Source: an uncultured Clostridium sp. (GTDB lineage: Bacteria; Bacillota; Clostridia; TANB77; CAG-508). Taken from it: a DNA stretch of 64,000 nt. The stretch spans positions 6,987 through 70,986 of the forward strand of contig CABUKD010000001.1 in assembly GCA_902492105.1 (NCBI GenBank). The letters are read 5' to 3'. Shown here in pieces: positions 5,676-34,259 of this stretch (position 1 is its first letter; every line of letters begins with the position of its first letter). The notes under the pieces were generated by a model, which ran no database searches, was not told the origin of the DNA, and saw only the letters and a program-made list of their open reading frames with translations. The position numbers and the translations under genes are program-made.

Positions 5676-5987
5676 TTAATAACTTAGCTTTTTTTGGATA
5701 CCTAGCCCATCTCCATAGCAAATTAAAGTTTCTATTTTTTTATTTACTTTTTTTGGGATATTAGTTATTTTTAGAGATTGTTCAAAAATTTTTTTATTGT
5801 TTTGGTTTATGGTAAAATCAGATTGTTGTAATTTAGCTTCTTGTAAGTTTACTTCTGATATATTGGTTTCTTGTAACTTTAGATTTTGCAAGTTTAGTAC
5901 TTGTAGATTTTGGGCTTGTAATTGTTTTACCGGTTCTAGTCCAAATTTACTTTGAAACCAGGAAAAAATTCTTTTTATAATACTCAT
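5676..5987 (-). CDS. Pentapeptide-repeat protein.
   Basis: Runs of A(N/D)Lxx-like pentapeptides (LQAQNLQVLNLQNLKLQETNISEVNLQEAKLQQSDF). Its start overlaps the stop of the upstream gene by 4 nt. Confidence 0.6.
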   Translation of the reverse strand: MSIIKRIFSWFQSKFGLEPVKQLQAQNLQVLNLQNLKLQETNISEVNLQEAKLQQSDFTINQNNKKIFEQSLKITNIPKKVNKKIETLICYGDGLGIQKKLSY

Positions 5988-7570
5988 CTTTCTTCTCCCT
6001 TCTCACTTTTTTCTGAAGCGACGGAACTTCTAGATAAATCCACATCTTGTTTTTCTTGCTCTTCTAATTCCCATGGTCTAAATCCATTTGCTCTTTCCAA
6101 ATCTTCTTTATAACATTCAAATTGTTTTGTAAATTCTTCTTGTGGTAGTTCTATAAATTGTCCGGCTGTTTTATCTGCAAAGTAGAATTTTTTTCCTAAT
6201 TCATTTGAATTAAGATAAACATATAAAACTGGTCTTTTTTTCTCATCTTGTTTATGGTACACTCTATGAATAACACATTTGTTAAAGTTGAAGTTCTTAT
6301 CATTTAATAGGATATCTTTTAAAACACGCATAGTAGAATTTGGGCATGTAACAAATTCTGGACAAACTTGAGAAAGTAGTAAAAATTGCTTTTGAATATC
6401 TGTTTCTGGTTCATTTGCATAAAGTTCGTGTAGCATCTTTGATTTTTCTATTAAATCTTTAATAGGAAATTGCCCATCTTTATCTGCTAGCCCAACACTT
6501 GTAAATAATGCTCTTAAATTTTGTTCATTTAAGCTTAAAGTTATATTGCTTAATTGAGAATCATTTTTGTGACTATTGCTATCTTTTCCGTCTTCATCTA
6601 TATCTAATTTTCTTGCTTGTTCATAACTAATACAAAAATTATCTGGTATAGCATCAAATCTATGGCTTGTTAAATTCCATGTTGGGTCTATTATGGTATC
6701 ACCTTTTTGTAATTCTCCATTTTCATCTGGAAGTTCTATATCTTTCACTTTTAGAAATGCATGATTTTCACTTTGCACAATTTCACTTTCAATACCTATT
6801 CTTTGCAAAATATATTGTTCTACTGCTGCTATTCCATTACAAACACCATAACCAGAAGTAATAATTTTCCATAATGCCCTAGCATCTTTTGGGTTAAACA
6901 CTTCTGTCTCATAATCTGGAGTATAGCTTATTTTTTTACCAATAGCATGGTCAATAATCGCCATTTTTTGTAATTTAGAATAGCTAGGATCTAAGCTATT
7001 AACAAGGGAGCTTATCCATTGTTCTGCTTTTTTATATTCATTTGGAGTAGAAAAAAATTGTATCGCGTAAGCTATTTCATTGCTTACTTCCATATTAGGG
7101 CAAATATCACATAATTGTAAAAAATTTTTTCTTTGTTCTTCATCAAATCTTTCTGGATTAACTCTCATTATGGCATCTAGTCCACGATAATCTTCCAAAT
7201 TTCTTTCTAAGTTTAAAATAACACGCCCAGTATATACTGATGTTGGAATACTAAGTGCTGTTTTATATTCTTCTGGGAAATTAGTAGTATCAATTTCTCG
7301 CTTTACCTCTTCTTTCAACGTTGCCAAGATTTCCATTTTCTCATTTAGTGTTAAATTAAAATGTTCTAAATTTGCTACAAATTCTTTTTGTTGCTCAACA
7401 TTAAATTCACGTACAATTTCATATGGACGAATATCTATTGTACTACAAAATTGTTTACACTCTTGTAAAAATTGGTGTAAAGTTTCTATATCTAATAATG
7501 ATAGTATGTCTAATTTCTCATATTTTGTATGAGCTTTTTCTAATCTTTTTCTTAAAATTTGAATATCCAT
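5984..7570 (-). CDS. Transglutaminase-like superfamily protein (putative cysteine protease fold).
   Basis: 528 aa. Core GYGVCNGIA ... HAFLKV ... D(TIID) consistent with the Cys-His-Asp triad of transglutaminase-like domains. Confidence 0.5.
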   Translation of the reverse strand: MDIQILRKRLEKAHTKYEKLDILSLLDIETLHQFLQECKQFCSTIDIRPYEIVREFNVEQQKEFVANLEHFNLTLNEKMEILATLKEEVKREIDTTNFPEEYKTALSIPTSVYTGRVILNLERNLEDYRGLDAIMRVNPERFDEEQRKNFLQLCDICPNMEVSNEIAYAIQFFSTPNEYKKAEQWISSLVNSLDPSYSKLQKMAIIDHAIGKKISYTPDYETEVFNPKDARALWKIITSGYGVCNGIAAVEQYILQRIGIESEIVQSENHAFLKVKDIELPDENGELQKGDTIIDPTWNLTSHRFDAIPDNFCISYEQARKLDIDEDGKDSNSHKNDSQLSNITLSLNEQNLRALFTSVGLADKDGQFPIKDLIEKSKMLHELYANEPETDIQKQFLLLSQVCPEFVTCPNSTMRVLKDILLNDKNFNFNKCVIHRVYHKQDEKKRPVLYVYLNSNELGKKFYFADKTAGQFIELPQEEFTKQFECYKEDLERANGFRPWELEEQEKQDVDLSRSSVASEKSEKGEER

Positions 7571-7772: not shown

Positions 7773-7797
7773 AAAAAAACTCCCTTTAGGGAGTTTT
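7773..7797 (-). terminator. Rho-independent terminator at the 3' end of the mod-res-orfA-orfB operon.
   Basis: Perfect hairpin AAACTCCC-TTTA-GGGAGTTT followed on the minus strand by a U7 tract. Confidence 0.7.
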
Positions 7798-7885
7798 AAT
7801 TAGTTGGAGCGAATAACATACAAGTTACGAACTATGTTCTCTTTCTAAAAATATTATATATCATTTTATAATTATATTCAATTAT

Positions 7886-8947
7886 TTAATTCAAATAAGC
7901 AGGAGTTCCATAGGAAAAAGATTCATTAAATAAATAATTTAGTACAAAGTTTGGGAATCTCCTTTTTACACATTCAATATATATCTTTATTATACTTACA
8001 ATTGCATCATTATTACCATTTAAAATTAAATTCCAATTATCTTGATGGTATCTTACTTGCTCACTTAATATGAAAAAGTTAATATAATCTATTAATATCT
8101 GTGGTAATAAGATATTTTTTTTCTTGTTATTATTATAAATGTCTACAGGAAAAACAAAATATCTTCCCCCTATAACAGTATTATAGTTATAGAAAAATTC
8201 AAAGTTAGAAAGAGGCAAGTTATCGTTTGAAATATATTGTGTAAATGTTGAACTGCCATGCATTGGTTGTTTTGTATATTTAGTGTTTATTTTGGGATTT
8301 TTTTTCTCTAATTTATTAGAGTCTGTTGTATAAATTCCAAATGCGATTTTTTCATTTTCTATTTTTAATTCGCTATAACAATAAATACAATTAGAATCAA
8401 ATATTTTTATTTTATCTATTAAATTTTTTAATTCCGGCACAGTAGAAATAGTATCTTTAAATTTTATAGTATCCTTTTTATCAAATGTTATATTAAAAGT
8501 TTTTGCAAGTTCTAAAAAAACACCATCATTAACATTTGCATATTCATTTAATAAATTCCAATTGTTTTTTTTGTTTTTTTGTATTTTCTGTTTTTCATTT
8601 ATTGGTCTGGTTGTAAGTCCATGATATTTTATATCATCTAAAAACAACTCTCTTGATGAATTTGAAATTATTATGGCTTTTGAAAATGAAAGCATACCGT
8701 AATAAATAAGCAACGGAGATATGGATATATCCGCTTTTTCTGAATTCTTAAAAAATTCAATTCCTTGTTTAATGCAAAAAGATATTTCTTTTGCTTTTTT
8801 TCTTTCAATAGATGAAATTTTTGAACTCATTATTTTTCTGTTTGATTTTATTTTTCCACATAATAATTTTTCACAATTTTTAGAATATGACAACATTTCT
8901 AAATGCTGAAAAATATCTTTTTTTGGATTTTCTGACCATGTATGCAT
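7886..8947 (-). CDS. Uncharacterised protein (orfB). It has a PLLIYYGMLSFSKAII motif reminiscent of YaaC-like proteins. Last gene of the Type III R-M operon.
   Basis: 353 aa, soluble, no recognisable catalytic motif. It follows orfA after a 13-nt gap and is terminated by the hairpin at 7773..7797. Confidence 0.5.
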   Translation of the reverse strand: MHTWSENPKKDIFQHLEMLSYSKNCEKLLCGKIKSNRKIMSSKISSIERKKAKEISFCIKQGIEFFKNSEKADISISPLLIYYGMLSFSKAIIISNSSRELFLDDIKYHGLTTRPINEKQKIQKNKKNNWNLLNEYANVNDGVFLELAKTFNITFDKKDTIKFKDTISTVPELKNLIDKIKIFDSNCIYCYSELKIENEKIAFGIYTTDSNKLEKKNPKINTKYTKQPMHGSSTFTQYISNDNLPLSNFEFFYNYNTVIGGRYFVFPVDIYNNNKKKNILLPQILIDYINFFILSEQVRYHQDNWNLILNGNNDAIVSIIKIYIECVKRRFPNFVLNYLFNESFSYGTPAYLN

Positions 8948-8960
8948 TTTTAACCTCCTT

Positions 8961-9815
8961 TTATCTGTAGATTGCTATTGGGGTTACAACAAAAGCTGGT
9001 CCTTTAATAGAGTCTTTTAATTCTTTTGGATTAGATAAATCTTTAGGCATTTTTCTTTTTTGTTCTCTATTTAAATTTAATTTTTTTACATTATCAAATA
9101 TTTCATCTAATTCAATGCTTTTTCCTTTTTCTACTTTTTTTTGTACTTTACAAAGAAGATAGCATTGTGATTTAATATTTTCTTCATCAGTTTTAAAAAA
9201 AGTAGTATTTAATTCTGCAATAAAAGGATATTTTTTATTTTCAAAATTAAATACACAAGATACCATTGAAGTATCATTTATTCTTGAAATTGTTTCAAAT
9301 CCAGATAGTGCTTCTTTTGTTTTACTATCAATCATATCATCACTCATATAAGGTTGAAATGCAGTAATTAAATTGTTTAAGTTTTTTGCCATATTAGATA
9401 TTTCTTTTATTTTTGAAAATCTAGGTGTTACTAATAATTCTAAAAAATCGTCTCTATAAATATCTTGCCATATATTTTCATCAATTTCTTCATAATATTT
9501 TAATTCATCTTCATTTTTTAGATATTTTATTACTTTATCTAATTTACTAGAATCAGTTATTCTAACATTTTTTGTAGTAGTATTAGTATTTTGCTTTCCT
9601 AAATTTGCTTCTGCTGTTAATTTTCCAAATCCTATACCAGCTTTTCCTCCTTTATCATCTACGTTATTACTAGTAATTATTTCTTCATCGTAAGTATATC
9701 CGTCTATTTGAGATATATAATCATTTATTGCCTCAATATCTAAGTATAAGATATTTCTCAATGCCATATTATCAAAACCTTTCTTATCTAAAATATTTTT
9801 TTCAATAAAATCCAA
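8961..9815 (-). CDS. Uncharacterised protein (orfA), translationally coupled to res.
   Basis: 284 aa. Its start overlaps the res stop by 28 nt. No known motif recognised. Confidence 0.5.
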   Translation of the reverse strand: MDFIEKNILDKKGFDNMALRNILYLDIEAINDYISQIDGYTYDEEIITSNNVDDKGGKAGIGFGKLTAEANLGKQNTNTTTKNVRITDSSKLDKVIKYLKNEDELKYYEEIDENIWQDIYRDDFLELLVTPRFSKIKEISNMAKNLNNLITAFQPYMSDDMIDSKTKEALSGFETISRINDTSMVSCVFNFENKKYPFIAELNTTFFKTDEENIKSQCYLLCKVQKKVEKGKSIELDEIFDNVKKLNLNREQKRKMPKDLSNPKELKDSIKGPAFVVTPIAIYR

Positions 9816-11986
9816 TTATCATTTTCCATATCTTCTGTATATTCTGTATTACATAAATATAATGAATCATTCTTATCGTAATCTCTAACAAATCCCCAAT
9901 TTACATTATACTTTTTAGCATATTCTTTTAATGCTTCAAACTTATTTTCTACTTTTATATCAATATTTTTTGATTCACCTTCAGCATTTTCTCCGCCTTT
10001 TGTTTCAATAATCCAAATTTTATTATCTTTATCGCAAACTATGAAATCAGGGTAGAAGTGCCACTTATGATTTACTGCATCTACATAAACTATGGAAAAA
10101 TAGTCACTAGATTTTTCTCCATTTTTATAAAACCACTTAATACTTTCGTTATTTTCACAAAAATATTCAAACATTCTTTCAGATTTTGATTTTATTGTGC
10201 TATTAGGATAATTTAAATATATTGATTTTTCATAAATAGTAGTATCTCTCATTTTAGGATCATATTTGATATAATCCATTTCTGGAAAATGCCAATCAAT
10301 CTCTTTTAATTCTTCAAATTTCATTTTTATTTGTCTTGCTTTTTGAGATACTGCTTCTTGAAAATCATGTTTTAATATATCTTCATTATTTATCACAAAA
10401 GCATAAAACTCAGTTAAAGTTAAATCTACAAATTTTTTAGTAAATAATTTTTGTTTCCAAAACATTCTTTCTAGCATTAATCTAGTTCTATCATAACGCA
10501 TACCAATTTTAGATGCTATTTCATTTATAGAATGTCTTAATTCAAAACCATTTTTATTTGTAGTTACAGTAGATTGTACTTTAATTCTATTAGCATTTTC
10601 TAGTTCATTGCTATTAATCCTAACAATTTTATCTTGAACTATGTAATTATCAATAGTATCTTTAAAAACATATCCATTAGCTTCTAAAATTGTTTTATTA
10701 TCTTTCTTTTTAGAAGTTAGTTTATATTTATCTATGTAAAATTTATGTAATATATTGAAAGTTTCTCTTTCATCAAATCCATCAAAATTATTATCAAAAG
10801 TTAATTTCTTTAAAGTAAAGTTTTTATATTCATTTTTTAAAAATATAACTTTTGTATCATAAGCGTTATTACCTAATTCTTGTTTAACAGATTGTTCATA
10901 TTTTTCATCAAAAGTATATAAATAACAATTATCAAGTAAAACATTATCATAGTGATGTCCTTGTGGCATTCTTCTAATTCTACCAATAGTTTGAGTTTCA
11001 AAATCTTCATTCATATTATCACGAAGTTTTACAAGTATTTTAGCACGTGGACAATCCCAACCAGTAGATATTGCTTGTTTCATAATAAGTATTGCTTGAT
11101 TTGATTCATTATCTTCAATATTATCTATATTTTCTTTTCTATCAGCAAGCCATATAGCAAGATTTTGTTTTATATAGTCATATCCTTTTTCTTCAAGAAT
11201 TTTTTCTATCATTTTTATCAAATCATCAGATTTGCTTGGTACTTGAATAATAATTAAAGGATTTACCTGAACACCTAATTTTAAATATTCATTTTTAATT
11301 GCTTTTCTTTTTTCTATTGCAAGGTCAAGCAAATATTCATGTTCATTGGAAAGAGCAGTATCATTTGATACATTTTCATTAATATAAAGTGCTCTTGTAA
11401 TTAAACCAGAATTTATAACTTCTAATTCATCGATAGCAATAAATTCTGCTTCTTTATTTGTTTTAGTAGTAGCACTAACTCTAATAATATAATTAGGATT
11501 CATATATTCAATAATACTTTCAGCTTTAACAGTTTTATTTAAATGTTCTTCATCAACGATTACAATAAATTTGTATCCTGAGTTATGTGCTTCATGTATT
11601 CTTTCATATAGATTTTTTCTTTCAGCATCTTTTAAAGCATTGTTGCCTTTTTTAGTAATCGTTTCCCAGTTAATAAATGCAGTAGATTTTTCTTCAAAAC
11701 CTTGAAGTAATACATCTTGAATATTTTGTGTTTTATGATGAGGTAAAAACTTTAACATTTTCTTTCTACTTTGTTCTTCTAAATCTCCTTTACCAGGAGT
11801 AAGCCATACAAATAAAACATTTTTATTTTCTTTAAAATATTCTTCAATATATGAAAGTAATATAATTGTTTTACCAGATCCAGTAGGTGCTTGTACTAAT
11901 ATTTCTTTTTTAGTACCAATACTTGTAGCATCTAATAATTTATTTACTGTATCAAGTTGAAATTTTTTTAATTTAATTCCTTGCAT
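9788..11986 (-). CDS. res: Type III restriction enzyme Res subunit (SF2 helicase plus C-terminal PD-(D/E)xK nuclease).
   Basis: Walker A VQAPTGSGKT, DEEH box (IVIVDEEH), and a C-terminal FYPDFIV...IIETKG PD-ExK-like motif. Lies immediately downstream of mod. At 732 aa it is shorter than many Res proteins. Confidence 0.8.
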   Translation of the reverse strand: MQGIKLKKFQLDTVNKLLDATSIGTKKEILVQAPTGSGKTIILLSYIEEYFKENKNVLFVWLTPGKGDLEEQSRKKMLKFLPHHKTQNIQDVLLQGFEEKSTAFINWETITKKGNNALKDAERKNLYERIHEAHNSGYKFIVIVDEEHLNKTVKAESIIEYMNPNYIIRVSATTKTNKEAEFIAIDELEVINSGLITRALYINENVSNDTALSNEHEYLLDLAIEKRKAIKNEYLKLGVQVNPLIIIQVPSKSDDLIKMIEKILEEKGYDYIKQNLAIWLADRKENIDNIEDNESNQAILIMKQAISTGWDCPRAKILVKLRDNMNEDFETQTIGRIRRMPQGHHYDNVLLDNCYLYTFDEKYEQSVKQELGNNAYDTKVIFLKNEYKNFTLKKLTFDNNFDGFDERETFNILHKFYIDKYKLTSKKKDNKTILEANGYVFKDTIDNYIVQDKIVRINSNELENANRIKVQSTVTTNKNGFELRHSINEIASKIGMRYDRTRLMLERMFWKQKLFTKKFVDLTLTEFYAFVINNEDILKHDFQEAVSQKARQIKMKFEELKEIDWHFPEMDYIKYDPKMRDTTIYEKSIYLNYPNSTIKSKSERMFEYFCENNESIKWFYKNGEKSSDYFSIVYVDAVNHKWHFYPDFIVCDKDNKIWIIETKGGENAEGESKNIDIKVENKFEALKEYAKKYNVNWGFVRDYDKNDSLYLCNTEYTEDMENDNWILLKKIF

Positions 11987-13741
11987 TTACATTACCTCCA
12001 TAATTTCATCTTCAAAATAATATTCTGGTATGATATATACTTCAATATTATTATTTTTAAATATAGATTCTTGCGTTGATGTTAAGAGTATATCTGAAGA
12101 TATATATACTTTTTCGCAGACATCTAATTCACTTTGATTTTTACTAAATTTATCTAATTCATCTTCGTCTAAATAAACTCTAATTTTATTGTCATCTATT
12201 TCAATACCGTTTTCTAATTGAATAAGATTTTTAATATTAATTAGTAAATTATTGTGAAGATTTTCATCTTCAGTATTAATTCTTGGTATATATGTGCATT
12301 TATAATATTTTAAATTTGCTTCTAATGGATTATATTTTCCATAACCTTCAATCACGTTTTTTATTCTCTTGTAAGTTATATTTTCACAAATTTGATTTTC
12401 ATTATTAGTACATAGAATAAAATGCCTTTGTCCGTTATCCTCGCTATTTAGTTCTAATACTGCTTGAGCAGTACTACCAGAACCTGCAAAAAAATCTAAA
12501 ATAGTAGCGTCTTTTTTTGTATGATAATTTATAAGTTCTTTCAGCATCTTGGCTGGCTTTTTTCCACTATTAAAAGGTATATTTCCTTCGTGGCGAATAT
12601 TACCAAAATCAGCTGCAAAATTCATTAAATTAGAAATAGGTACTTCCCTAAAAGAGCCATGTTGAGAGTTTATTTCTTCAACTCTAGATAATGGCATTCC
12701 AGAGTACATTTTGCACCTAGTAGAGCCTTTTTTTGCAGGTCCAACATAATATCTGTATCCTAATCCATCATCACCACGACCAATCACTTTATATAAGCAT
12801 CCTAGACCATCTATATTATATCTTGGTTCTATATATTTTCTAACGACTTGACCATATGACATTTTAGAATAAATTGTTCCTGAAACCCAAGTTTCTTTAA
12901 GTAAGTTAATATTTGATTGTTCTTTTTTTTCTATTATCCATTCGTTAGGCTTAAACACTTTAATTTCAGTATTATCTTTATGTTTAATGGTAGTTCCACT
13001 CGAAATTTCTTTAATTTCATAAATAAAACTAGCATCAGTATATTCTTCTTTTGGTAAATTTATTTTAAACTGACTGTAATCTTTAGCGTAGACTAATACA
13101 TATTCCATTACTGGTTTAACTGATTTTCCATCAGCTAAAGACTTTTCTGCATATCTAACTTGAATATGATGAATGGATATCCTATTAGTTTCATTAAAAA
13201 TATCATCACAAAGTAGTTTTAACTGTGCTATTTCATTATCATCTATCGAAATAAAAATTATACCTTTATCATTAAGTAATTCTTTTGCTATTCTTAGTCT
13301 TTTTTCCATAAAAGATAACCATTTAGAATGTTTGTATCCATCTTCATTATCAATAATTTTATCATTATAAATAAAATCATCGCTACCTGTATTATATGGA
13401 GGATCAATATAGATTACATCGATTAATCCTTTATGAGTTTTTTCTAATAGATATAAACTATGAAGATTATCTCCCTCTAATAAAAAATTAAACTTATCTT
13501 TTGGATTAGATACTATTTCTTTATCTTTTACTTCTTCAAAAGTAGGTATCTGAGTTTCTAACTCTTTATCAACTCTTTCTTCGTGTTCTTCCCATATAAG
13601 TCCATATTTCTTTTTAGTCAATTCATTTTCTATCATTGATAAATTAGTTAATGTTTCTTCATCAGTAATATTTTTTTTAATTTCGTTAATTGTATTTAAC
13701 ATTTTATTTCTTCTAATTTTTGATAGATTAGTAGTTTCCAT
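11987..13741 (-). CDS. mod: Type III R-M Mod subunit (beta-class N6-adenine/N4-cytosine DNA methyltransferase).
   Basis: IYIDPPYNTG (motif IV, DPPY) lies N-terminal to FFAGSGSTAQAV (motif I). That beta-class order is typical of Mod. Its stop abuts the res start. Confidence 0.85.
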   Translation of the reverse strand: METTNLSKIRRNKMLNTINEIKKNITDEETLTNLSMIENELTKKKYGLIWEEHEERVDKELETQIPTFEEVKDKEIVSNPKDKFNFLLEGDNLHSLYLLEKTHKGLIDVIYIDPPYNTGSDDFIYNDKIIDNEDGYKHSKWLSFMEKRLRIAKELLNDKGIIFISIDDNEIAQLKLLCDDIFNETNRISIHHIQVRYAEKSLADGKSVKPVMEYVLVYAKDYSQFKINLPKEEYTDASFIYEIKEISSGTTIKHKDNTEIKVFKPNEWIIEKKEQSNINLLKETWVSGTIYSKMSYGQVVRKYIEPRYNIDGLGCLYKVIGRGDDGLGYRYYVGPAKKGSTRCKMYSGMPLSRVEEINSQHGSFREVPISNLMNFAADFGNIRHEGNIPFNSGKKPAKMLKELINYHTKKDATILDFFAGSGSTAQAVLELNSEDNGQRHFILCTNNENQICENITYKRIKNVIEGYGKYNPLEANLKYYKCTYIPRINTEDENLHNNLLINIKNLIQLENGIEIDDNKIRVYLDEDELDKFSKNQSELDVCEKVYISSDILLTSTQESIFKNNNIEVYIIPEYYFEDEIMEVM

Positions 13742-13897
13742 TATTACAACTCCTTACGTTAAAACCATTTAATTATCTTAATTTTGATGTGCGTTTTTTT
13801 CTGTTAATATTATACTATATATTGCTTATATTTTCCATACTTCGACTAAAATTGCTAAAGAAAAAATCGGATATTTCTATCCAATTTTTTAAAAATA

Positions 13898-14224
13898 TTA
13901 TTCGATGTTTAAATTGAATTTTATATCGTCACATATATCATTCAACCAAGTTAAATAATGATTTAAATCATGTTCTTTAATATAACCATATCTATGTGCA
14001 TCCCTAGCAATAGTATTAAGTCCATTTCCAATCATTTTGAATTCATCACGATGTTTTTCTAGTATACTCATATCAGCTTTGATAGGAGTATATTCTTTAA
14101 TCAATTTTCTAATATAATCTGACTTACTTAAATTCAATTTTTTACATTTTTCTTCTAAAATTTTATTTTCTTCTTCAGATAAATACAATGTTTTTTCAAT
14201 CTTTCTTTTTCTCATCTTTTCCAC
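13898..14224 (-). CDS. MobC-family mobilisation (relaxosome accessory) protein with ribbon-helix-helix region.
   Basis: 108 aa. LSKSDYIRKLI RHH-like segment and the conserved GNGLNTIARDAH motif (MobC GNNLNQIAR consensus). Confidence 0.6.
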   Translation of the reverse strand: MEKMRKRKIEKTLYLSEEENKILEEKCKKLNLSKSDYIRKLIKEYTPIKADMSILEKHRDEFKMIGNGLNTIARDAHRYGYIKEHDLNHYLTWLNDICDDIKFNLNIE

Positions 14225-14331
14225 CTCCTTTCTTATGTAAGGGGATTGGGGATTTCCCCATATACGAATTTGTGCGAGTGTACAAATTCAGTGCTGGCTA
14301 GACAAAAAATTATATCTAGTACATACACTTT

Positions 14332-14691
14332 TTAAATAAATATTAATTCTTTTAAGATTATTTCTTCAGCCATATTTTTGTAATTGTTCATAAGTTTTGA
14401 CCATTCTATATGATTAATTTCTTTATTTTTTTCAGATAGTTTTTCATCTGAATTTTTGTAATTTTTCATTAATATTTGTAATCTATCTTCACTATTTTTA
14501 CTAACTGAAATAAGATGATTAGTAAGTTCATTAGTCATTAAAAGTGTAGTGTAAAGAGCTTTCTTATTTTCCTTTAAATAGTGTAATCTTAAATATCCAT
14601 ATTTGTTTATTCCTTTAGTATTTTGATTTTTTATAGTTAAATTTGGTAATAAATAATTTCCATTTCGTGTATAAATTAATTTCATTTTCAT
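14332..14691 (-). CDS. tnpV: TnpV-like protein (Tn4451/Tn4453 family transposon accessory protein).
   Basis: 119 aa. The MKxKxxYTxxGxYxLPNLT ... YGxxRLxYLKE ... LMNNxK ... EEIIL pattern matches Clostridial TnpV as remembered. It sits directly downstream of the large serine recombinase, as in Tn4451. Confidence 0.55.
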   Translation of the reverse strand: MKMKLIYTRNGNYLLPNLTIKNQNTKGINKYGYLRLHYLKENKKALYTTLLMTNELTNHLISVSKNSEDRLQILMKNYKNSDEKLSEKNKEINHIEWSKLMNNYKNMAEEIILKELIFI

Positions 14692-14707
14692 CTCTCCATT
14701 TCTTTAT

Positions 14708-16498
14708 TTAATTAGTGACTGCAATATCTTTTTTAGGTACTAATATTAAAATATCTTTTAGTTTGTTTTCTTCAACATAAGGACAGCTAATAATGCCATC
14801 AATATATAAATGTTCTCTTGATTTTGATATAAAATATTCTAAAAATTCATTTGAATATTTATTTGATTTCATTTTTTTAATAGATAAAATATCATAATCT
14901 ACTTCTATATTTTTTAATTTTTCTTTGTTAATTTCTTTATAAAATTTGATACCAATATTGTTGTTTTCCATAATTTTATTAAGATATTTTATATATTCTT
15001 TACTGCTTTTTGTTATTAGTTCATCTGTAAATTTTATATTTTTAACATCAATGTTATAGTTTTTATCTCTTGTTATTTCTATTTGAGATATAAGTCTATG
15101 AATTAAATCTCTTTTAGCTTTTCTTGTTAGTAAATCATAAAGAAAAGTAAATCCTATATTTTTAATATTTGTAAAAATTAATTTGTCGTTTTCTTCAATA
15201 CAGTCTAATTTTTTAACAAGTTCTATTGTATATTCTTTTGAAGAATTATCTGGATCAAGAGTTGTTTTCTTTTTATTTAATTTATCTATTTCTTTCTTTA
15301 TTACTTCATTTTTGTGATTAATTGTTTCTACATTCAAAGTAGAGCTTAAATATAAATCAACTAATCTTTTTTCCTGCATTTTTAATTTTTCAATAGCTTT
15401 TTCTATTTCTTTTACATCATTACTTTTAGTAGAATTACAAGTAATAATTTCATTATTCATAGAAAGCATAAATATTGTTAACTCTTCTAATATTTGTTTT
15501 AATTTTTCTTCTATCTTTTCTGTATTATAATGATATCCATAACCTTTACAATTAGTGTTTTTACATCTTAAGTGGTAATATACTTTTTGCTTTCCATTAG
15601 GATATTTAAATGATTCTGATGAACTCATAATTTCTCCACATAAAGGGCATTTAACTAATCCTGAAAATAAATGAATGTGCTCACCATAATTAGAATGTTT
15701 ATTTTTAACTAATACATTTCTAGTTGCATTCCAAGTATTTATATCAATAATTGGTTCACAATAATTTTCGACTCTTAAAATATCTTGAGGTTTTCTTTTA
15801 TACTTTCCATATTCAAATATTCCAATATAAATTGAATTAGTAAGTATTTTATAAACTCTATCTGATAACCATTTTCCTTGTTTTAAGTAAGCGTTATTAT
15901 CGTGCATAATAGTTGCTATATTTCTTGTGGAGTGTCCTTTTTTGCATAGTTCAAATATTTCTTTTACTACTTGTGATTCAATAGGTTCTATTTCTAAATG
16001 ACCAGTATTTTTATTTCTAACATAGCCATAAGGTGCTTTACTAGGGTGTATTTTTTCTAAAGCCATTTCTTCCATAGCTCTTTTTGTTCTTGCTCCAATT
16101 TCTTTTCTTTCTCGTTGACCAAATACTAAGTTCATTCCAAATATCATTTCACCATTAGCAGTAGATACATCATAAGGTTCTAATATTAATTCTATTTTAA
16201 CATAGTGTTCTTCACAGTAATTTAAAAGCCAAAATCCATCATAATTATTTCTTGTAAGTCTATCTACTTTAATAGCAATTAATTTGTCAATCTTTTTAGA
16301 TTTTATATCAGCAAGTAATCTTTGCATTTCTGGTCTCATTAAATCTTTTCCAGAATGTCCTGCATCATTGTAAACATCAACGATACTATAATCATTCTTT
16401 TCACAATACTCTTTAATCATTCTAAGTTGTGAATCAATAGAATAACCATTATCTCTTTGATCATCTGTACTAACTCTTACATAAACACCACATCTCAT
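14708..16498 (-). CDS. tnpX: Large serine recombinase (TnpX-like). Probable true start MRCGVYVRVSTDDQ at 16496-16498, with AGGAGG RBS at 16505-16510. The ORF track extends to 16558.
   Basis: N-terminal resolvase catalytic domain (YVRVSTDDQ, DRLTRN) plus long recombinase/zinc-ribbon C-terminal extension. About 597 aa. Confidence 0.85.
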   Translation of the reverse strand: MRCGVYVRVSTDDQRDNGYSIDSQLRMIKEYCEKNDYSIVDVYNDAGHSGKDLMRPEMQRLLADIKSKKIDKLIAIKVDRLTRNNYDGFWLLNYCEEHYVKIELILEPYDVSTANGEMIFGMNLVFGQRERKEIGARTKRAMEEMALEKIHPSKAPYGYVRNKNTGHLEIEPIESQVVKEIFELCKKGHSTRNIATIMHDNNAYLKQGKWLSDRVYKILTNSIYIGIFEYGKYKRKPQDILRVENYCEPIIDINTWNATRNVLVKNKHSNYGEHIHLFSGLVKCPLCGEIMSSSESFKYPNGKQKVYYHLRCKNTNCKGYGYHYNTEKIEEKLKQILEELTIFMLSMNNEIITCNSTKSNDVKEIEKAIEKLKMQEKRLVDLYLSSTLNVETINHKNEVIKKEIDKLNKKKTTLDPDNSSKEYTIELVKKLDCIEENDKLIFTNIKNIGFTFLYDLLTRKAKRDLIHRLISQIEITRDKNYNIDVKNIKFTDELITKSSKEYIKYLNKIMENNNIGIKFYKEINKEKLKNIEVDYDILSIKKMKSNKYSNEFLEYFISKSREHLYIDGIISCPYVEENKLKDILILVPKKDIAVTN

Positions 16499-16532
16499 AA
16501 AATTCCTCCTTTCTTCATTTTTGAGAAGGATT

Positions 16533-16687
16533 AATATTCCTCTCACTTGTTTCCTCACTTAAGTTTAAAATAGCAACCTAGATTTTTAAAAAAATTAATC
16601 TTCTCATATGTTTCCTAACTAAAACTCAAAAAAGCAGACTGAATTTGAAAAAAATTAATCCTCTCATATGTTTCCTCGCTAAAAGGC
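16533..16687. repeat. Three ~32-bp direct repeats, consensus ATTAAT(C)YTCTCAYWTGTTTCCTMRCTWAA, in the recombinase 5' UTR/promoter region.
   Basis: Copies at about 16533-16562, 16594-16625 and 16656-16687, spaced ~60 bp apart. The first copy sits just upstream of the RBS. Confidence 0.6.
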
Positions 16688-16717
16688 ACTTTTACGAAGT
16701 GTATTTTCAAAAAAAAT

Positions 16718-17002
16718 TTAATATTTGTATTTTTTTATAATATTTTCTATTTCTTTTAAGTTATATTTTGCTTTATGTTCTTTAATGTAAAATGGTTTAT
16801 TACTGATTTCATTTACTTTGTACTCAAGAATAGTAAGAGTAATAGGATGCGTAATTAGATATTCAGTTGGTTCTATAATTTGTAAATTAGTATGTAGAAG
16901 AACTTTGATTTTTCCTTTTTTAGTTTTGTAAGTGTAGTTTTTAATAAGTTCTATTATTTTTGGATTAGGTTTAAGTTCTTCTAAGATTTTAAATTCAAGC
17001 AT
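16718..17002 (-). CDS. Hypothetical protein, 94 aa.
   Basis: ORF only. No motif recognised. Confidence 0.35.
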   Translation of the reverse strand: MLEFKILEELKPNPKIIELIKNYTYKTKKGKIKVLLHTNLQIIEPTEYLITHPITLTILEYKVNEISNKPFYIKEHKAKYNLKEIENIIKKYKY

Positions 17003-17093
17003 AAAAAATGTCCTCCTTCCTAGAAAGAGAACATTAAAGTTTTATATAAAATAAAAACTTACGAGCCATTATAGTCCGTAAGTTGTATTCAAA

Positions 17094-17167
<74 letters not shown>

Positions 17168-17311
17168 ATTATTATTTAGTTTGTTCATTCTTTTTGCATG
17201 AACAAATAATATTATAAATGGTATTTCGTATTTTGTCAATCATTTTTATGAATTTTTTTTCATTTCTTGCATATTTTTTTATAAAATAAAGAAAGGGTAA
17301 ATGTACAAAAT

Positions 17312-18122
17312 ATGAAATTTCTTATTGATTATTGTAAAGGGATTTTAATTGGTAGTGGTGCAATTTTGCCAGGTATTAGTAGTGGTGTTTTTTGTGTTAT
17401 TCTTGGTATTTATGAAAAATTAATTGATAGTGTTCTAAACTTATTTCATGACTTTAAGAAAAATGTTATTTTTCTTCTTCCTATTGGTCTTGGTGGAATT
17501 ACAGGAGTGTTATTAGTAGGTAAATTGCTTAATTTTCTCTTTAATGAATACCCTATGCCAACTAAGTTTTGCTTTATCGGTCTTATTTTAGGTAGTATTC
17601 CTGTATTATTCAAGCAAGCAAATCAGAAAAACGGTTTTCGACTTTCCCATCTCATTTTTCTAGTAATTGCTTTTTTTATTGGTTTTCTTTCTGTTAAATT
17701 AGAGACTATATTGCCAAATCTCATTAACTTAGATTTAGGAGAAAACAACTTTTTCTATTTTATACTTTCTGGATTTCTTATGGCCATTGGTATTGTAGTT
17801 CCTGGCGTAAGTAGTAGTGTTATTTTAATGTGTTTACGGTGTTTATAACCTTTATTTAGGTGCTATTGCTAGCGTAAATTTATCTATACTAATTCCTATG
17901 GCAATTGGAGTTTTACTTGGAAGTCTCTTATTTTTAAAAATAATTCAATTTTTGTTAAACCATTATTATACACAAACTTTTTATGCCATTATTGGATTTG
18001 TATTAGGCTCTGTTCTTATTTTATATCCTGGCTTTAACTTTAGTTTAGAAGGTTTTATCTCTATTGGATTATTTATTTTAGGTTTTTATATTGGTTTAAA
18101 GTTTGAAAAAGTCAGCCAGTAG
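17312..18122 (+). CDS. DUF368-family membrane protein, split by a frameshift near 17828-17848.
   Basis: Duplicated ILPGISSGV / VVPGVSSSVIL half-repeats typical of DUF368. The ORF stops at 17848 but continues in the +1 frame (GVYNLYLGAIASVNL...) into the 17898 ORF. Confidence 0.7.
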
Positions 18123-28838: not shown

Positions 28839-30362
28839 TTACTCTCCCATGACCTCTTGAATCTCTTCTTTTGCTGCATCTACTGAATTTGAATCTGGAA
28901 TCATAACATATGCATAACTACTTCCTAAAGAATAGGTTGTTCTTGAAGCACCTGTTCCAGTAAGTGCATTTGTTTTAATTGTCCATGAAGACATATTGTT
29001 TAGTTGATCTTTTACTAAACTACTAATTTCACTTTGTTCTATATTAGTTTGGAAGGTTCCTTCTAAAGCATTTAAAATACTAGTATATTTAGTCAAAATA
29101 GTTGTACTATTTAATACTTTTTTCATAATTGCTTCAATTACAGCTTGTTGGTTTTTCACTCTTTGATTATCTCCACTAGCAAAAGCATGTCTTTCTCTAC
29201 TAAATTGTAGTGCTGCTGCACCATCCAAATGATTATATCCTTGGTTATAATGATATCCATAACTTGAAAATTCATATTCTGAATATACATCAATTCCACC
29301 CAAAGTATCCACTAGCGTTTTTACTGTTGTAAAATTAACTCTTACATAATAATTAATGTCAATATCTAATAAATCTTCTACTGTTGTTACCGTTTCATTA
29401 ATACCATAAATTCCAGAATGTGTTAACTTATCTTTTGCTTGTTTTCCATGTAGTGTAACATAGTAATCTCTTGGAATAGAAGTTAATAGTACTTCATGTG
29501 TTTTTGTGTTAACTGTTACTATAATATTTGCATCACTTCTTCTACTATTTTTGTCATTTCCACTAATATAAACATTAAAAACTCCACCATTAATTGTATG
29601 TTTAGAATTTTCTGTTTCCATACTACCAATAGATTTTATCTCACGTTTTAAAGTATTCAATATTTTTACATCATTTTCAAAATCTTCAATTTCTTCTGTT
29701 AAAATATCATATTGTGAAGCACTAATATAAATAATATCAATTTCTCCATCTATCAACTCTTCTCCCATTTTTATCAGATCGTCACTATTTTGAAAATTGA
29801 CTTCTACCTGTTCTGTTAGTTGATTACTTTCTTCTTCTGTAAGTTGGAATAGATAAACATCTTCATTTTGAATATCTTCTATTTGTTCATAGTTTGAATT
29901 CTTTCTAACTACCACATAATACTCTTCTGTTTCTATAACATCTTGAAATACATTTCCTAAAAAATCTGTTGTTGCATTTGTATAATTTGTAACATAAATA
30001 TATACTCCTGAAAGAAGTAATACTATTATCATACAAAAAATATTTAACTTATAAGTTTTATGTTTTTTACCTAGCCCCACAACCATTGCTAAAGTAAATA
30101 TAATTTCCGCAATTGTTAAAACAATAATATATGTAGTTGGCAAGAGGTTCATTCGTAATACAGAAATATAAAACAGAGCTGTTATTATAACATAAATAAA
30201 AGCTATAATTTTAAAAAAGATATTTAATTTATTATTTGACTTTTTCTTTTTTTGTCCTTTCATTGTTGTACTTTCACTTCCTTTTTTTGATTTTGTTTTA
30301 TAATACTGCGAATGATTAATTCTAAAATTTTGTTCTTGGTCTTTTGAGTGCTTCCCTGCCAT
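28839..30362 (-). CDS. LytR-CpsA-Psr (LCP) family cell-wall polymer transferase.
   Basis: N-terminal TM segments and LLTSIPRDYYV LCP signature. Confidence 0.85.
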   Translation of the reverse strand: MAGKHSKDQEQNFRINHSQYYKTKSKKGSESTTMKGQKKKKSNNKLNIFFKIIAFIYVIITALFYISVLRMNLLPTTYIIVLTIAEIIFTLAMVVGLGKKHKTYKLNIFCMIIVLLLSGVYIYVTNYTNATTDFLGNVFQDVIETEEYYVVVRKNSNYEQIEDIQNEDVYLFQLTEEESNQLTEQVEVNFQNSDDLIKMGEELIDGEIDIIYISASQYDILTEEIEDFENDVKILNTLKREIKSIGSMETENSKHTINGGVFNVYISGNDKNSRRSDANIIVTVNTKTHEVLLTSIPRDYYVTLHGKQAKDKLTHSGIYGINETVTTVEDLLDIDINYYVRVNFTTVKTLVDTLGGIDVYSEYEFSSYGYHYNQGYNHLDGAAALQFSRERHAFASGDNQRVKNQQAVIEAIMKKVLNSTTILTKYTSILNALEGTFQTNIEQSEISSLVKDQLNNMSSWTIKTNALTGTGASRTTYSLGSSYAYVMIPDSNSVDAAKEEIQEVMGE

Positions 30363-30597
30363 CTCTTCCTCCTAATTATTATTAAATATTGCTTCATAAT
30401 CGTAATTTACTATCCAAAAAGTTAACTAAAATAGTATTTAATCTAAAGGTAAAAAAGGTTTGAATAACCATAAAACCATAAAAATACTTTCACAAGTTTT
30501 GGTTTATTTGATGCTAAATCCCCTAGTACAGCTATTTGTAAAAATACAAAATTAGAATATATAAATTAAATAACCATTATCTTCTTACCTTTATTTT

Positions 30598-31899
30598 TTA
30601 ATTATTTGATTGCTTTTCTGTTTTAACTGCAGCTTCTTCTATTTCTTCTTTTTTTCCTGTTTCTATTGACTTATTTTGAAAATATTTTCTTGTATCCACA
30701 TAAGCTATAGAAAGGAAATAAAAGAATGTGAGCTGTGTTACATCCATAATTTGAATAGTAATACCAGAAATAATAATTATTAATTGTATCACTATACAAA
30801 ATGTTAAAACTATATCTTCTTTATTTTTCAAATATGATTTAAAGGCTTTTATTAAGTTATATATAAAAAATGTTACTAACATTATACAACCTATAATTCC
30901 ATAATAATATAAATATTGAACAAACACATTATCAAATATTAATTGTACATTTTTAATAATTCCATTTCCAATAAACCAATGGTTTGATATGTCAGTACTA
31001 AATTTTTCCCAAATGAGAGTCCTGTCATTTAAAGTTGCTAAGTCTTCAAATAGTTCTCCTAGTCTAACAGAATATAGCAAGTCTTTATTAATTAGCATCA
31101 CTAAAATTACAGCCAACAATATAATTCCTATAATAATTAATTGCTGTTTTAATAATTTTTTATTTTTTTCTGCAATCAATTTTGTAATAATGATAATAAT
31201 ATATACTAATACTGTTGCAATTAATGCTGTTCTAGAACCAGTATAGTATAGGAAAAATACTGACAATATAATAAGTGGTATTTTCTTTTTGTTTTCCATT
31301 CTAGAAATTAATAATATAATACTAATCATGGATAGAAATACACCAAACATATTTGGATTTTTAAATGTTCCAGATATTCTATTAAAGAATTGAAAAATAT
31401 TACCCGATTTTCCCATTTCATATATATTTTTTAAAATACCATCTTTTAATACTGGTATATCGAATAATTCAATAGTAGATATCACACTAATTCCAATCAT
31501 AACTATAAAAATAACTTTATATAGTATTTTTTCTACATTCTTTGTTTCAATTTCTTTTAAAGTTTGATATAGATAATGGTACATAATAAACCACTCTATC
31601 ATTCTAATAATCTCTGCAAATTGTCTAATTCCCCAAAAATTTGTCCTAAAGATAGCAAGAATAGTCGCTATAATATTTAAAATAATAAATGCAATTAAAA
31701 ATTTATTTACTACATTATTTTCAGGTTTGTATTTATTTTTTATGGCGAGCAAAAATAAAGTTCCTATTAGTACCGCATCTGAAATATATAATGCAGCACT
31801 ATAGCCAATCCATTTAGATGGAAATGGCCAAAAGCATACAATTAGAACTGGAATTAAAATTGCTAAATATTGTTTTCTATGTTCTATTTTATTTTCCAC
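30598..31899 (-). CDS. O-antigen ligase/polymerase (Wzy-like) membrane protein.
   Basis: About 10 TM segments. YYTGSRTALIA motif characteristic of the O-antigen ligase domain. Confidence 0.7.
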   Translation of the reverse strand: MENKIEHRKQYLAILIPVLIVCFWPFPSKWIGYSAALYISDAVLIGTLFLLAIKNKYKPENNVVNKFLIAFIILNIIATILAIFRTNFWGIRQFAEIIRMIEWFIMYHYLYQTLKEIETKNVEKILYKVIFIVMIGISVISTIELFDIPVLKDGILKNIYEMGKSGNIFQFFNRISGTFKNPNMFGVFLSMISIILLISRMENKKKIPLIILSVFFLYYTGSRTALIATVLVYIIIIITKLIAEKNKKLLKQQLIIIGIILLAVILVMLINKDLLYSVRLGELFEDLATLNDRTLIWEKFSTDISNHWFIGNGIIKNVQLIFDNVFVQYLYYYGIIGCIMLVTFFIYNLIKAFKSYLKNKEDIVLTFCIVIQLIIIISGITIQIMDVTQLTFFYFLSIAYVDTRKYFQNKSIETGKKEEIEEAAVKTEKQSNN

Positions 31900-33085
31900 T
31901 ATTTAAAACTCCTTTAATTTGTAAGTAATGATTTTTCCAATTAAATTTTTGTGTAACATATTGATTTCTATCATTGCTATATTTTTCACTTGTATTCATA
32001 CAAAACTGGATTGCCTCTAGTATTTCTACTTTATTATTGTAAGCCACCACTTTACCTAGCTTATCTGATGTAATAATTTCTGAACTTGCTGTTATCGTTT
32101 CTGGTGGATTAGATTTTGCTGCAATGCAAGGAAGCCCACAAGCCAAAGCTTCTAAGTAGACATGTCCAAATCCCTCATATTTACTAGGCAAGATAAATAC
32201 ATCTGAAGCTTTATAATAATCTTCTACATTTGTTTTTTCTCCTAATAACTTAACTTGATTTTGTAGATTTCTTTCTTCTATTTTTTGTTGTAACAATTGT
32301 CTATTATCACCATCACCTACAAAGTATAAACTATAATTTTGTTCTTTTAGATTTTCCATACAATCAATAACAATTTCTTGGTTTTTCTCAGCTTCTAATC
32401 TAGCTACACAAAGCAAAATTTTTTCTTGTTCCTTAAAGCCTAATTTTTTTCTCAATTGTATTTTTTCTTCTTTACTTACTAAATTAAAACGCCTTTCATC
32501 AATTCCTGGATAAAAAACATCTACTTTTTTACTTTCAATATGATATTCTTTTTCCACTTCTTCTTTTTTAGATTTACTTAAAACTCCTATTATGGTAGAT
32601 TTACGAATAGCCATCCTATCTAATATATTAATTTGCGGAATAACCAGATAAGAATAGATTTTCTTAAAAATATTTTTTACTTTTTTAGCTTCTATTTTTT
32701 GCAATTTAGCTGCCACTAGAGGAGTAATAAAAATATGTTTTACCTCCTTATTTAAGCTTTCTATTGCTGCTGCAAAGGAATAAAATCTTGAAATAACAAT
32801 ATCATCTTTTCCAAATTTTATTTTTTTCAAAAATTTTTTATTTCTTTTATAGTAAATAATTGGTGAAAATATTTTTAATAGTTTAGGTATTCCGGAATAA
32901 TCAATTCTACTTACTTTAACACCATCGATTATTTCCACAGGTAATAATTCTTTCTTTTTTAAATTAGATGTAATAATTTCTACTTCATCTTCAGTATCTA
33001 AAATAGCTTTAGCAATATTTTTAGCATATGATACCAATCCACCTTTTTCTGGAATATATGCATTTGTTAAAATCCAAACTTTCAT
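31889..33085 (-). CDS. GT4 glycosyltransferase.
   Basis: EGFGHVYLEALACGLPCIA GT4 signature. Confidence 0.85.
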   Translation of the reverse strand: MKVWILTNAYIPEKGGLVSYAKNIAKAILDTEDEVEIITSNLKKKELLPVEIIDGVKVSRIDYSGIPKLLKIFSPIIYYKRNKKFLKKIKFGKDDIVISRFYSFAAAIESLNKEVKHIFITPLVAAKLQKIEAKKVKNIFKKIYSYLVIPQINILDRMAIRKSTIIGVLSKSKKEEVEKEYHIESKKVDVFYPGIDERRFNLVSKEEKIQLRKKLGFKEQEKILLCVARLEAEKNQEIVIDCMENLKEQNYSLYFVGDGDNRQLLQQKIEERNLQNQVKLLGEKTNVEDYYKASDVFILPSKYEGFGHVYLEALACGLPCIAAKSNPPETITASSEIITSDKLGKVVAYNNKVEILEAIQFCMNTSEKYSNDRNQYVTQKFNWKNHYLQIKGVLNSGK

Positions 33086-33097
33086 CTTTTTTCCTCA

Positions 33098-34258
33098 TTA
33101 TTTATTTCTATTTTTCAAAATTCTTACTATGTTTGAAAAAATCATTTTTCTAAATGTATATACATGATTTTCTAATCCTCTATAATTAATATTTTCTAGT
33201 TTATCTAATCCTTTTTCTACTATTTCATATACTTCTTGCTTATTCTCTTCTAATAGTAAATATTCAGATAGACTATGTAATAGCCATGCATCTGATCTTG
33301 GATAATATTGTTTATTAATAATTTCCCCTGTATTTTTAATGATTGGAGCAAAATGATCTTCTACAATCATATTTTTCATAATGTAATCTAAAATTTTAGA
33401 AGTCATTTGTTTATCTTTCCATTGTAAAGCACATAATAGTAAAGAACAATATCCCCAAGAATGAATATCTGTTGTTACCTTTTCTCCTATTTCTATATAT
33501 GGAACTGCAATACCTTGTTCTAATTTATCTTGTAAATAATTAGTAACTAATTTAATAATATCTTGATTATCTTTATTTTCAAAATAATTATTTAATAAAA
33601 TATGATAATATAGTTGTTGAGCTATGTGATAATTATCTACTTTTATATAACTTTTTTGGCTCATTAAAGATTTTTCAAAATAATTCCAATATCCCTTATT
33701 ATCTTTAATAATTAATTCGCTTTTTAAGTATTTTAGCATATCTGCACAAATTGGTTTTACTGTATTATCATTAAAAAGATAAGAATAATAACCTAATGCA
33801 GCTACAGTAAAAGAAATAGCATTTGTAATATGTACTTGATGATAAGAACATGGTGCATATGGAATTACATAAAGATTATCTTCATTTTTATAGGATTTTT
33901 CTTTAATCCAATTAACAGCTTTATTAATGTTTGGTACAATATTTTCATTTTTAAAAATTTCATAATATTTTAATAGTGCAAAAAGAGAAACAATTTCTGG
34001 TGTAGTAGATTCTTGTTCGCTCTTTTTAGTCATGTTATCTCCAAATGAAAAATTATATCCAATATCAAAACCTCCGTCTGCCAATTGTGTTCTAGCAATT
34101 AAGTTTGCAACATCATGACACCTTTTTTCATGTTTTTTTTCATGATATGCTAAGTACATATTTATATTAGCAAATAAGGCTTCATATAATGTTTGCGAAC
34201 TTAAAATATTATCTACAGGTTTATTTACAAATTCTAAAATTCTATCTTTTAATTTCAT
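33098..34258 (-). CDS. Hypothetical protein within the polysaccharide locus.
   Basis: 386 aa. No motif recognised. Soluble. Confidence 0.4.
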   Translation of the reverse strand: MKLKDRILEFVNKPVDNILSSQTLYEALFANINMYLAYHEKKHEKRCHDVANLIARTQLADGGFDIGYNFSFGDNMTKKSEQESTTPEIVSLFALLKYYEIFKNENIVPNINKAVNWIKEKSYKNEDNLYVIPYAPCSYHQVHITNAISFTVAALGYYSYLFNDNTVKPICADMLKYLKSELIIKDNKGYWNYFEKSLMSQKSYIKVDNYHIAQQLYYHILLNNYFENKDNQDIIKLVTNYLQDKLEQGIAVPYIEIGEKVTTDIHSWGYCSLLLCALQWKDKQMTSKILDYIMKNMIVEDHFAPIIKNTGEIINKQYYPRSDAWLLHSLSEYLLLEENKQEVYEIVEKGLDKLENINYRGLENHVYTFRKMIFSNIVRILKNRNK

Positions 34259-34259
34259 A

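Follow-up and report, generated by a model that had tools for sequence, protein, structure and literature searches.

PrrC, an anticodon nuclease whose nuclease domain has an HEPN fold, is linked to restriction systems, and the transposons of the Tn4451/Tn4453 family are mobilizable elements with TnpX and TnpV. Dodola (DolA/DolB), an experimentally validated two-gene anti-phage system of Firmicutes, contains a DUF6414 protein according to a review (bioRxiv 10.1101/2024.10.26.620412). Resemblances to these, and to Type III restriction–modification (R-M) enzymes of the EcoP15I/EcoP1I type, meet in a locus of an uncultured Clostridium sp. (GenBank assembly GCA_902492105.1, contig CABUKD010000001.1), which we analysed within a stretch of 64,000 nucleotides (nt; positions 6,987 to 70,986 of the contig, hereafter the window). 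A Type III-like gene pair, mod and res, is followed there by two genes of functionally uncharacterized families, orfA and orfB, and a reading made from the DNA alone (the sequence-only reading) had proposed the four as an undescribed defence module.

Our preferred interpretation, which we hold with some confidence, is that the locus is a transposon-borne stack of three separable, probably defence-related modules and not a four-component system. The first module would be a Type III-like R-M pair from an abundant lineage with a short Res, and the second would be orfA, a DUF6414 tail gene whose product may be a binder or sensor. The third would be orfB, a YaaC/HEPN-like terminal gene that probably acts alone, possibly as a second-line factor of the abortive-infection type. 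The features concerned are as follows.

7795..17173, (-): TnpX/TnpV-type serine-recombinase mobile element, ~9.4 kb, with approximate ends where homology to sister elements stops
11987..13741, (-): mod, 584 amino acids (aa), predicted Type III N6-adenine DNA methyltransferase
9788..11986, (-): res, 732 aa, predicted short subunit with superfamily 2 (SF2) helicase and PD-ExK nuclease, of Type III architecture and a divergent lineage
8961..9767, (-): orfA, DUF6414 protein, 268 aa counted from the ATG at 9767
7886..8947, (-): orfB, last gene of the element, coding for a YaaC-family protein of 353 aa whose helical core is predicted to be HEPN-like and is interrupted by a beta-rich insert
7773..7797, (-): terminator-like hairpin and U-run at the right end of the element, coinciding with the end of inter-element homology

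Separability of the modules

The order mod, res, DUF6414 gene, YaaC gene recurs in three closely related lineages with the same element backbone (loci L001-3, L068-71, L077, L078 and L018 of our comparison), whose products are 87–88 % (Res), 75–80 % (orfB), 63–70 % (orfA) and 56–85 % (Mod) identical to those of the window. Locus L072 has the same backbone (a 94-aa ORF, or open reading frame, 79 % identical, TnpX 81 %, TnpV 72 %) with a cargo of two helix–turn–helix (HTH) genes and a YaaC gene (63 %), and lacks mod, res and DUF6414. In L110-112, a sister lineage, a Res (87 %) is followed by an unrelated 132-aa protein and then by YaaC (71 %). A ~2.9-kb deletion in L018 (L018:6977-7997) fuses mod residues 1–84 to res residues 467–732, and in L078 (L078:2102-4306) res has an in-frame stop and mod is internally diverged; orfA and orfB are intact in both. 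One of the 49 DUF6414 loci in reference genomes has a YaaC gene, namely L018, and at 63 % identity to orfB or less YaaC never has DUF6414 upstream. The database contains 28 orfB-like and 261 orfA-like clusters, whereas members of the Res lineage number in the thousands.

The separation of the modules in relatives, together with these cluster numbers, argues that orfA and orfB are neither subunits nor obligate partners of the Type III enzyme; L072, L110-112, the YaaC genes at 63 % identity or less and the single case among 49 DUF6414 loci likewise argue that orfA and orfB are not an obligate pair. The separability of the three modules is as directly observed as the gene structure, the family membership and the element boundaries described below. 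The survey of linkage that the sequence-only reading had proposed did place homologues of orfA and orfB beside defence genes, but linkage to mod and res was found only among close relatives (Res 87–88 %, orfB at least 75 %), and the suggestion that the two proteins work with the enzyme or extend it as extra subunits is not supported. An undescribed four-component module is likewise unsupported, given that the parts separate in L072 and L110-112 and that orfA and orfB are kept despite the damage to mod and res in L018 and L078.

The 132-aa protein that fills the DUF6414 slot between res and YaaC (L112:1218-1616, also in L110 and L111) has an N-terminal transmembrane helix and a charged coiled-coil.

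Gene layout and junctions

All four ORFs are present in the window where the sequence-only reading had placed them, closely spaced on one strand, with no terminator before the hairpin that follows orfB. The mod and res genes abut directly at 11986/11987. The spacer between orfA and orfB measures 13 nt, as had been stated, and contains the ribosome-binding site AAGGAGG. The hairpin, described in the sequence-only reading as the first terminator of the operon, runs from 7797 to 7773 as AAAACUCCC-UAAA-GGGAGUUUU followed by a U-run; its 9-bp stem folds at -12.4 kcal/mol (z = -3.3), none of 200 shuffled sequences folds as well, and folding thus supports a structure that a scan for consensus terminators missed.

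The junction between res and orfA is different from that first described. A 28-nt overlap had been taken for translational coupling, but its sole source is a TTG at 9815, probably not the real start. Nearly all orfA homologues are 267–271 aa long, the ATG at 9767 has a ribosome-binding site (AAGAAAGG) 10 nt upstream, and in relatives the counterpart of orfA begins 4–10 nt past res. The ATG at 9767 is therefore the most likely start of orfA; it yields a protein of 268 aa and a gap of 20 nt after res, and the junction most likely reflects close operon spacing and not overlap coupling. An extended or truncated orfA overlapping res was rejected on the lengths of the homologues and the ribosome-binding site. 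The four genes are probably read as one transcript.

With blastn against L001, L018, L068, L072 and L077, homology extends from window position ~17173 to ~7791-7805 and then stops, and this loss of homology places the ends of the element to within ~10–15 nt. The element forms a block of low G+C content (0.22–0.26). Because the homology to sister elements ends at positions that match this block, the four genes are classed, on sequence grounds, as cargo of the ~9.4-kb TnpX/TnpV element, with orfB as its last gene and the hairpin at its end.

The Mod and Res proteins

In the translation of mod the motif IYIDPPYNTG (DPPY) stands well ahead of DFFAGSGST (FxGxG). The protein matches the PADLOC model MTase_III (1.8e-118) and Pfam N6_N4_Mtase (4e-36), and its sequence matches in the PDB are the Mod proteins of H. 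pylori (2e-37) and EcoP15I (2e-31). By its sequence, Mod classifies as a clear Type III Mod and a predicted beta-class N6-adenine methyltransferase (motif IV before motif I).

Res carries the motifs QAPTGSGKT, VDEEH (DEEH at 145–148), SAT and QTIGRIRR, and at its C-terminus PDF...IETKG (PD at 646–647, ETK at 661–663). These helicase and PD...ExK residues are all invariant in an alignment spanning 37–99 % identity, and the protein matches Pfam ResIII (9e-18) and Helicase_C. The PADLOC model REase_III matches partially (7e-14), over residues 140–372 of the helicase core only, and neither the single Res sequence nor a nine-member profile found EcoP15I Res in the PDB. One Res homologue carries the JGI name 'type III restriction enzyme'.

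Compared with described Type III systems, then, the locus has mod immediately upstream of res, a Mod clearly homologous to those of EcoP15I and H. pylori, and a Res in which an SF2 helicase precedes a C-terminal PD-ExK nuclease; it differs in that Res has no detectable match to EcoP15I Res. Architecture, motifs and the matches of Mod bear out the Type III architecture of the pair. The sequence-only reading had also remarked that Res is short for a Type III Res, and at 732 aa it is indeed ~240 aa shorter than EcoP15I Res (970 aa); this is not an oddity of the locus but the norm of a large lineage. A search for Res homologues returned at least 6627 proteins at E<=1e-10. More than 120 clusters of relatives at 88 % identity or above are every one 732–734 aa long, and homologues on plasmids of Mammaliicoccus sciuri, Staphylococcus aureus, S. 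epidermidis and Enterococcus faecium are 734–744 aa long and 37–47 % identical over their full length. On these plasmids mod and res form a self-contained pair with nothing co-directional afterwards. Members of the lineage abound in gut Firmicutes and on plasmids of staphylococci and enterococci. Sequence comparison thus assigns Res to a very abundant short lineage (732–744 aa) that normally occurs as a self-contained mod–res pair; standard models of Type III Res scarcely recognize this lineage, which the locus documents. The possibility that the short Res is a truncation compensated by orfA and orfB was rejected, as the length is constant across thousands of homologues including those of stand-alone pairs.

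We infer a Type III-like function of the pair from its family membership. By analogy with characterized Type III enzymes, Mod would methylate host sites and a Res–Mod complex would find and cut unmodified DNA using ATP.

The DUF6414 protein encoded by orfA

The sequence-only reading found no assignable motif in either orfA or orfB. Pfam does place both in families (DUF6414 and YaaC), and these are, as it supposed, functionally uncharacterized. The product of orfA matches DUF6414 (PF19952) over its full length (4e-36; 125.5 bits against a cut-off of 25; profile positions 1–283). The family is small (591 clusters at 50 % identity in a set of 1.84 billion representatives), and among its distant members almost nothing is invariant (R4, L79, E110, P257 and A265). 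This near-absence of invariant residues points to a role in binding or as an adaptor more than to catalysis; with no catalytic motif and a weak OB-like fold, orfA is more likely to encode a binder or sensor than an enzyme. A profile of the orfA family found nothing in the PDB.

DUF6414 is typically the last gene, often within 2–35 nt, behind very different operons, among them DpnII and XamI Type II R-M systems, AAA_21 and RloB pairs, a RiboL-PSP HEPN gene and genes for Ntn-hydrolase-like proteins. The operons that it follows include AbiL/PARIS-like ATPase–Toprim pairs, and it also lies beside a DUF262-like/HNH gene. In other loci DUF6414 precedes DUF3644 (PDC-S19, a candidate system of PADLOC) or the gene for an HD/HD_4/AAA_28 protein of 652 aa. 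It often adjoins serine recombinases, or comes directly after guaA or rumA, which are classical island integration sites. In one protein of 381 aa (P0260) an N-terminal TIR_2 domain (ThsB-like in PADLOC) is joined in a single ORF to the C-terminal two-thirds of DUF6414.

Individual members show further arrangements. Two DUF6414 proteins (P0293 and P0294) have N-terminal HTH-like extensions. In L039:6438-8819, L047:6429-8819 and L050:2018-4194 DUF6414 appears to open an island inserted where a housekeeping gene ends: it begins 13–15 nt after the 3' end of the upstream gene, which is guaA in L039, a similar, unannotated gene in L047 and, in L050, a 448-aa gene that resembles, by eye, an RNA methyltransferase of the RumA type. 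Four metagenome-assembled genomes of gut Bacilli (L020:8004-10810, L021, L023 and L026) have a DUF6414 protein 55–57 % identical to orfA, and ~40 nt after its gene that of a conserved 652–662-aa protein with HD, HD_4 (RelA/SpoT-type hydrolase) and AAA_28 domains; neither gene of this recurrent pair has a match in PADLOC, and the pair could be an undescribed system. In L025:5113-8641 (also in L019) DUF6414 comes 4 nt after a DpnII-type R-M system, and the next gene encodes a DUF3644 protein of 345 aa (PDC-S19) that contains the motif RNKVEH; the layout is the same as in the window, with a different R-M system and a different third gene. Proteins of 236–424 aa with an N-terminus that looks like an Ntn-hydrolase or proteasome beta subunit, and with no Pfam or PADLOC match, tightly adjoin DUF6414 in L040:4417-5127, L052:8204-8926 and L033:6689-7963.

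The YaaC-family protein encoded by orfB

A segment of orfB had been noted as reminiscent of YaaC-like proteins, and the Pfam match to YaaC (PF14175) agrees with this (1e-36; 127 bits against a cut-off of 27; profile positions 27–307). The predicted structure (pLDDT 92, pTM 0.92) is a bundle of N-terminal helices (two, 46–96) and C-terminal helices (283–340), interrupted by a beta-rich insert of ~180 residues. The model suggests, with moderate confidence, a likeness of this helical core to HEPN, the fold of defence and toxin proteins that cut RNA. Foldseek and a sequence-profile search of the PDB with orfB gave nothing significant, and the HEPN likeness was not reproduced there. Of the searches proposed in the sequence-only reading, those with profiles gave a Pfam family for each of the two proteins.

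H109 and R299 (45/45) and R329 and N333 (43/45) are the polar residues that stay invariant among 45 members of the YaaC family, compared down to 17 % identity; these stand in place of the canonical Rx4-6H motif of HEPN proteins, which is absent from orfB and the other family members. The contexts of YaaC genes at 63 % identity or less are a position after a Type I R-M system and DUF5655, a position after a GmrSD-like HNH gene, a conjugative element with a type IV secretion system (T4SS), a small Rep plasmid, and the core locus of the B. subtilis type.

The sequence-only reading had drawn an analogy with PrrC, and a loose resemblance does exist: in orfB, as for the PrrC/RloC anticodon nucleases, a protein with a predicted HEPN-type fold is encoded on the same strand beside an R-M system. 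The differences are that orfB lacks an ABC-ATPase domain and the Rx4-6H motif, that its place is behind a Type III pair and not inside a Type I locus, and that its linkage is facultative. Single-gene HEPN abortive-infection proteins and PDC-S19 (DUF3644) resemble orfB in being standalone proteins of ~350 aa on mobile elements, and in L025 PDC-S19 takes the position after DUF6414 that orfB holds here; no sequence relation of DUF3644 to YaaC is detectable, and YaaC is absent from PADLOC.

Alternative explanations

Seen as a stack of three modules, the restriction system is ordinary and the proposed four-component system is unsupported; the finding is real and mostly ordinary. The sequence-only reading was right to treat the two extra genes as uncharacterized and of a defence type in their contexts (DUF6414 behind R-M systems and other defence operons, YaaC beside Type I R-M and GmrSD-like genes), and went too far in tying them to the Type III enzyme. 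It is plausible that orfA and orfB are independent genes serving defence or the fitness of the element, with putative anti-phage and biochemical activities. DUF6414 and the mobile YaaC clade, functionally blank families absent from PADLOC, thereby become candidate stand-alone genes of either kind.

Several points weigh against this interpretation. The case for orfA and orfB as defence genes is contextual, and neither protein has a match in PADLOC (which has no model for them), NCBIfam or PHROGs. Searches for them in phage and plasmid collections (megablast of the region, tblastn) yielded nothing useful, the sole match being weak, to an ORF that resembles orfA and lacks a partner gene on a plasmid of B. 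tropicus; scans of IMG/VR found no DUF6414 and two weak YaaC-like matches. The enrichment of defence models near DUF6414 is only semi-quantitative: genes within two positions of it (n=144) matched 293 PADLOC families at E<=1e-5, against 100 for controls from the same loci at distances above 4.5 kb (n=137), and the comparison counts families and not genes. The YaaC gene of the B. subtilis type (L017) occupies a core chromosomal locus, and the family is not exclusively mobile or defence-linked. L018 and L078 come from metagenome assemblies, in which recent events or assembly errors are possible, and the tight spacing and the order kept in three lineages leave room for cooperation there.

It is unlikely, in our view, that orfA and orfB form a two-gene system of their own, Dodola-like with a YaaC/HEPN-like protein replacing the ClpB-like partner, which is parked behind the R-M pair. 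Such a system would fit the 13-nt spacing with its strong ribosome-binding site, the retention of both genes where mod and res decay (L018, L078), and the analogous L025 layout of R-M, DUF6414 and ~345-aa DUF3644/PDC-S19 genes. It would also fit the DUF6414 domain of orfA, which the review cited above attributes to one Dodola protein. That attribution was not reproduced with the PADLOC models: DolA and DolB had no match at E<=1 in orfA or orfB and none in 5 close and 70 distant DUF6414 proteins, and the equation of DolA with DUF6414 by this route failed on these 75 family members. The partner here, moreover, has no AAA+/Clp domain; adjacency of DUF6414 and YaaC is confined to one narrow clade (1/49 DUF6414 genome loci, no YaaC locus at 63 % identity or less); and L110-112 and L072 carry YaaC without DUF6414. 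By profile comparison (hhalign) YaaC showed no relation to DUF3644 (PDC-S19) or to a RiboL-PSP HEPN protein, and a conserved module of DUF6414 with an HEPN partner was dropped as a candidate.

A more far-reaching reading, which we consider improbable, takes DUF6414 genes as portable tail genes that attach to the 3' end of unrelated operons and encode generic second-layer sensors or adaptors (Type II and Type III R-M, AbiL/PARIS-like ATPase–Toprim pairs and HEPN genes), and YaaC proteins as uncatalogued HEPN-like single-gene abortive-infection effectors with a non-canonical His/Arg/Arg/Asn active site; in this cassette both would back up the Type III enzyme once it is evaded.

It is distinctly unlikely that orfB, and perhaps orfA, belongs to the backbone of the element and serves its maintenance and not defence, by a function in regulation, stabilization or addiction exerted at the element end. 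The position of orfB beside the conserved right end, the same in R-M-carrying elements and in L072, accords with this idea, as do the YaaC relatives in the conjugative T4SS element and on the small Rep plasmid, the core chromosomal YaaC of the B. subtilis type, and the frequency of DUF6414 at element edges, by serine recombinases or after the guaA and rumA hot spots. YaaC relatives are also found far from recombinases, however, beside Type I R-M and GmrSD-like genes; the neighbours of DUF6414 are enriched for defence models and one member is fused to TIR; and neither protein has a recombination or replication domain.

The least probable explanation is an integrated four-gene system, with the Type III enzyme guarded or extended by orfA, orfB or both. 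In one version orfB would be a latent PrrC-like HEPN effector that Mod–Res keeps inactive until the enzyme is blocked by a phage anti-restriction protein, and orfA would be an adaptor or sensor. The close same-strand genes with no terminator until after orfB, the order conserved in three lineages, the predicted HEPN-like fold shared with the nuclease domain of PrrC, and the YaaC relatives beside Type I R-M and a GmrSD-like enzyme speak for it, but a guard predicts toxicity or loss where most of mod and res is deleted (L018) or res has a nonsense codon (L078) and both genes are intact there, YaaC is found on the same transposon with no R-M system at all (L072), an unrelated gene sits in the DUF6414 slot of L110-112, most members of the Res lineage cannot have orfB, and orfB has no PrrC-type ATPase domain. 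The decayed mod and res genes and the free reassortment of parts thus leave both the PrrC-style guard and the extra subunit disfavoured within this narrow lineage.

The mobile element and its surroundings

Directly adjoining mod on its upstream side, in this order, are genes for a NikA-like ribbon-helix-helix (RHH) protein, TnpV and a TnpX-like large serine recombinase, and the mobile setting noted in the sequence-only reading is thus confirmed. The backbone features are as follows.

16718..17002, (-): ORF of 94 aa conserved at the left end of the element family, 66–79 % identical in L001, L018 and L072, with no Pfam match
14708..16558, (-): TnpX-like large serine recombinase (Pfam Resolvase 1e-31, Recombinase 1.5e-16, Zn_ribbon_recom)
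14332..14691, (-): TnpV (Pfam TnpV 3.2e-29)
13898..14224, (-): NikA-like RHH protein (Pfam NikA-like 4.3e-11, RHH_1)

The element resembles the Tn4451/Tn4453 family in having a large serine recombinase followed by TnpV and a variable cargo between backbone genes. It differs in that the cargo consists of defence-type genes and not of chloramphenicol resistance, and in that it has the NikA-like RHH gene only and no gene for a Mob_Pre relaxase, none being found among the ORFs of the element by the ORF list and a Pfam scan. The locus illustrates how serine-recombinase transposons of gut Firmicutes exchange small defence modules in the slot that separates TnpV from the YaaC gene at the end.

Directly beyond the right end (window 5676-7570, - strand) a 528-aa ORF and a 103-aa pentapeptide-repeat ORF overlap by 4 nt; the former has no Pfam match, and both lie upstream of the gene for a P-type cation ATPase. 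Just outside the left end (window 17312-18122, + strand) the gene for a VCA0040-like (DUF368) membrane protein is seemingly split into ORFs of 178 and 74 aa, which may reflect a frameshift or a disruption. Elsewhere, the G+C content of window positions 30000-38000 is 0.22–0.23, against 0.27–0.30 in the flanking DNA, over a run of same-strand ORFs.

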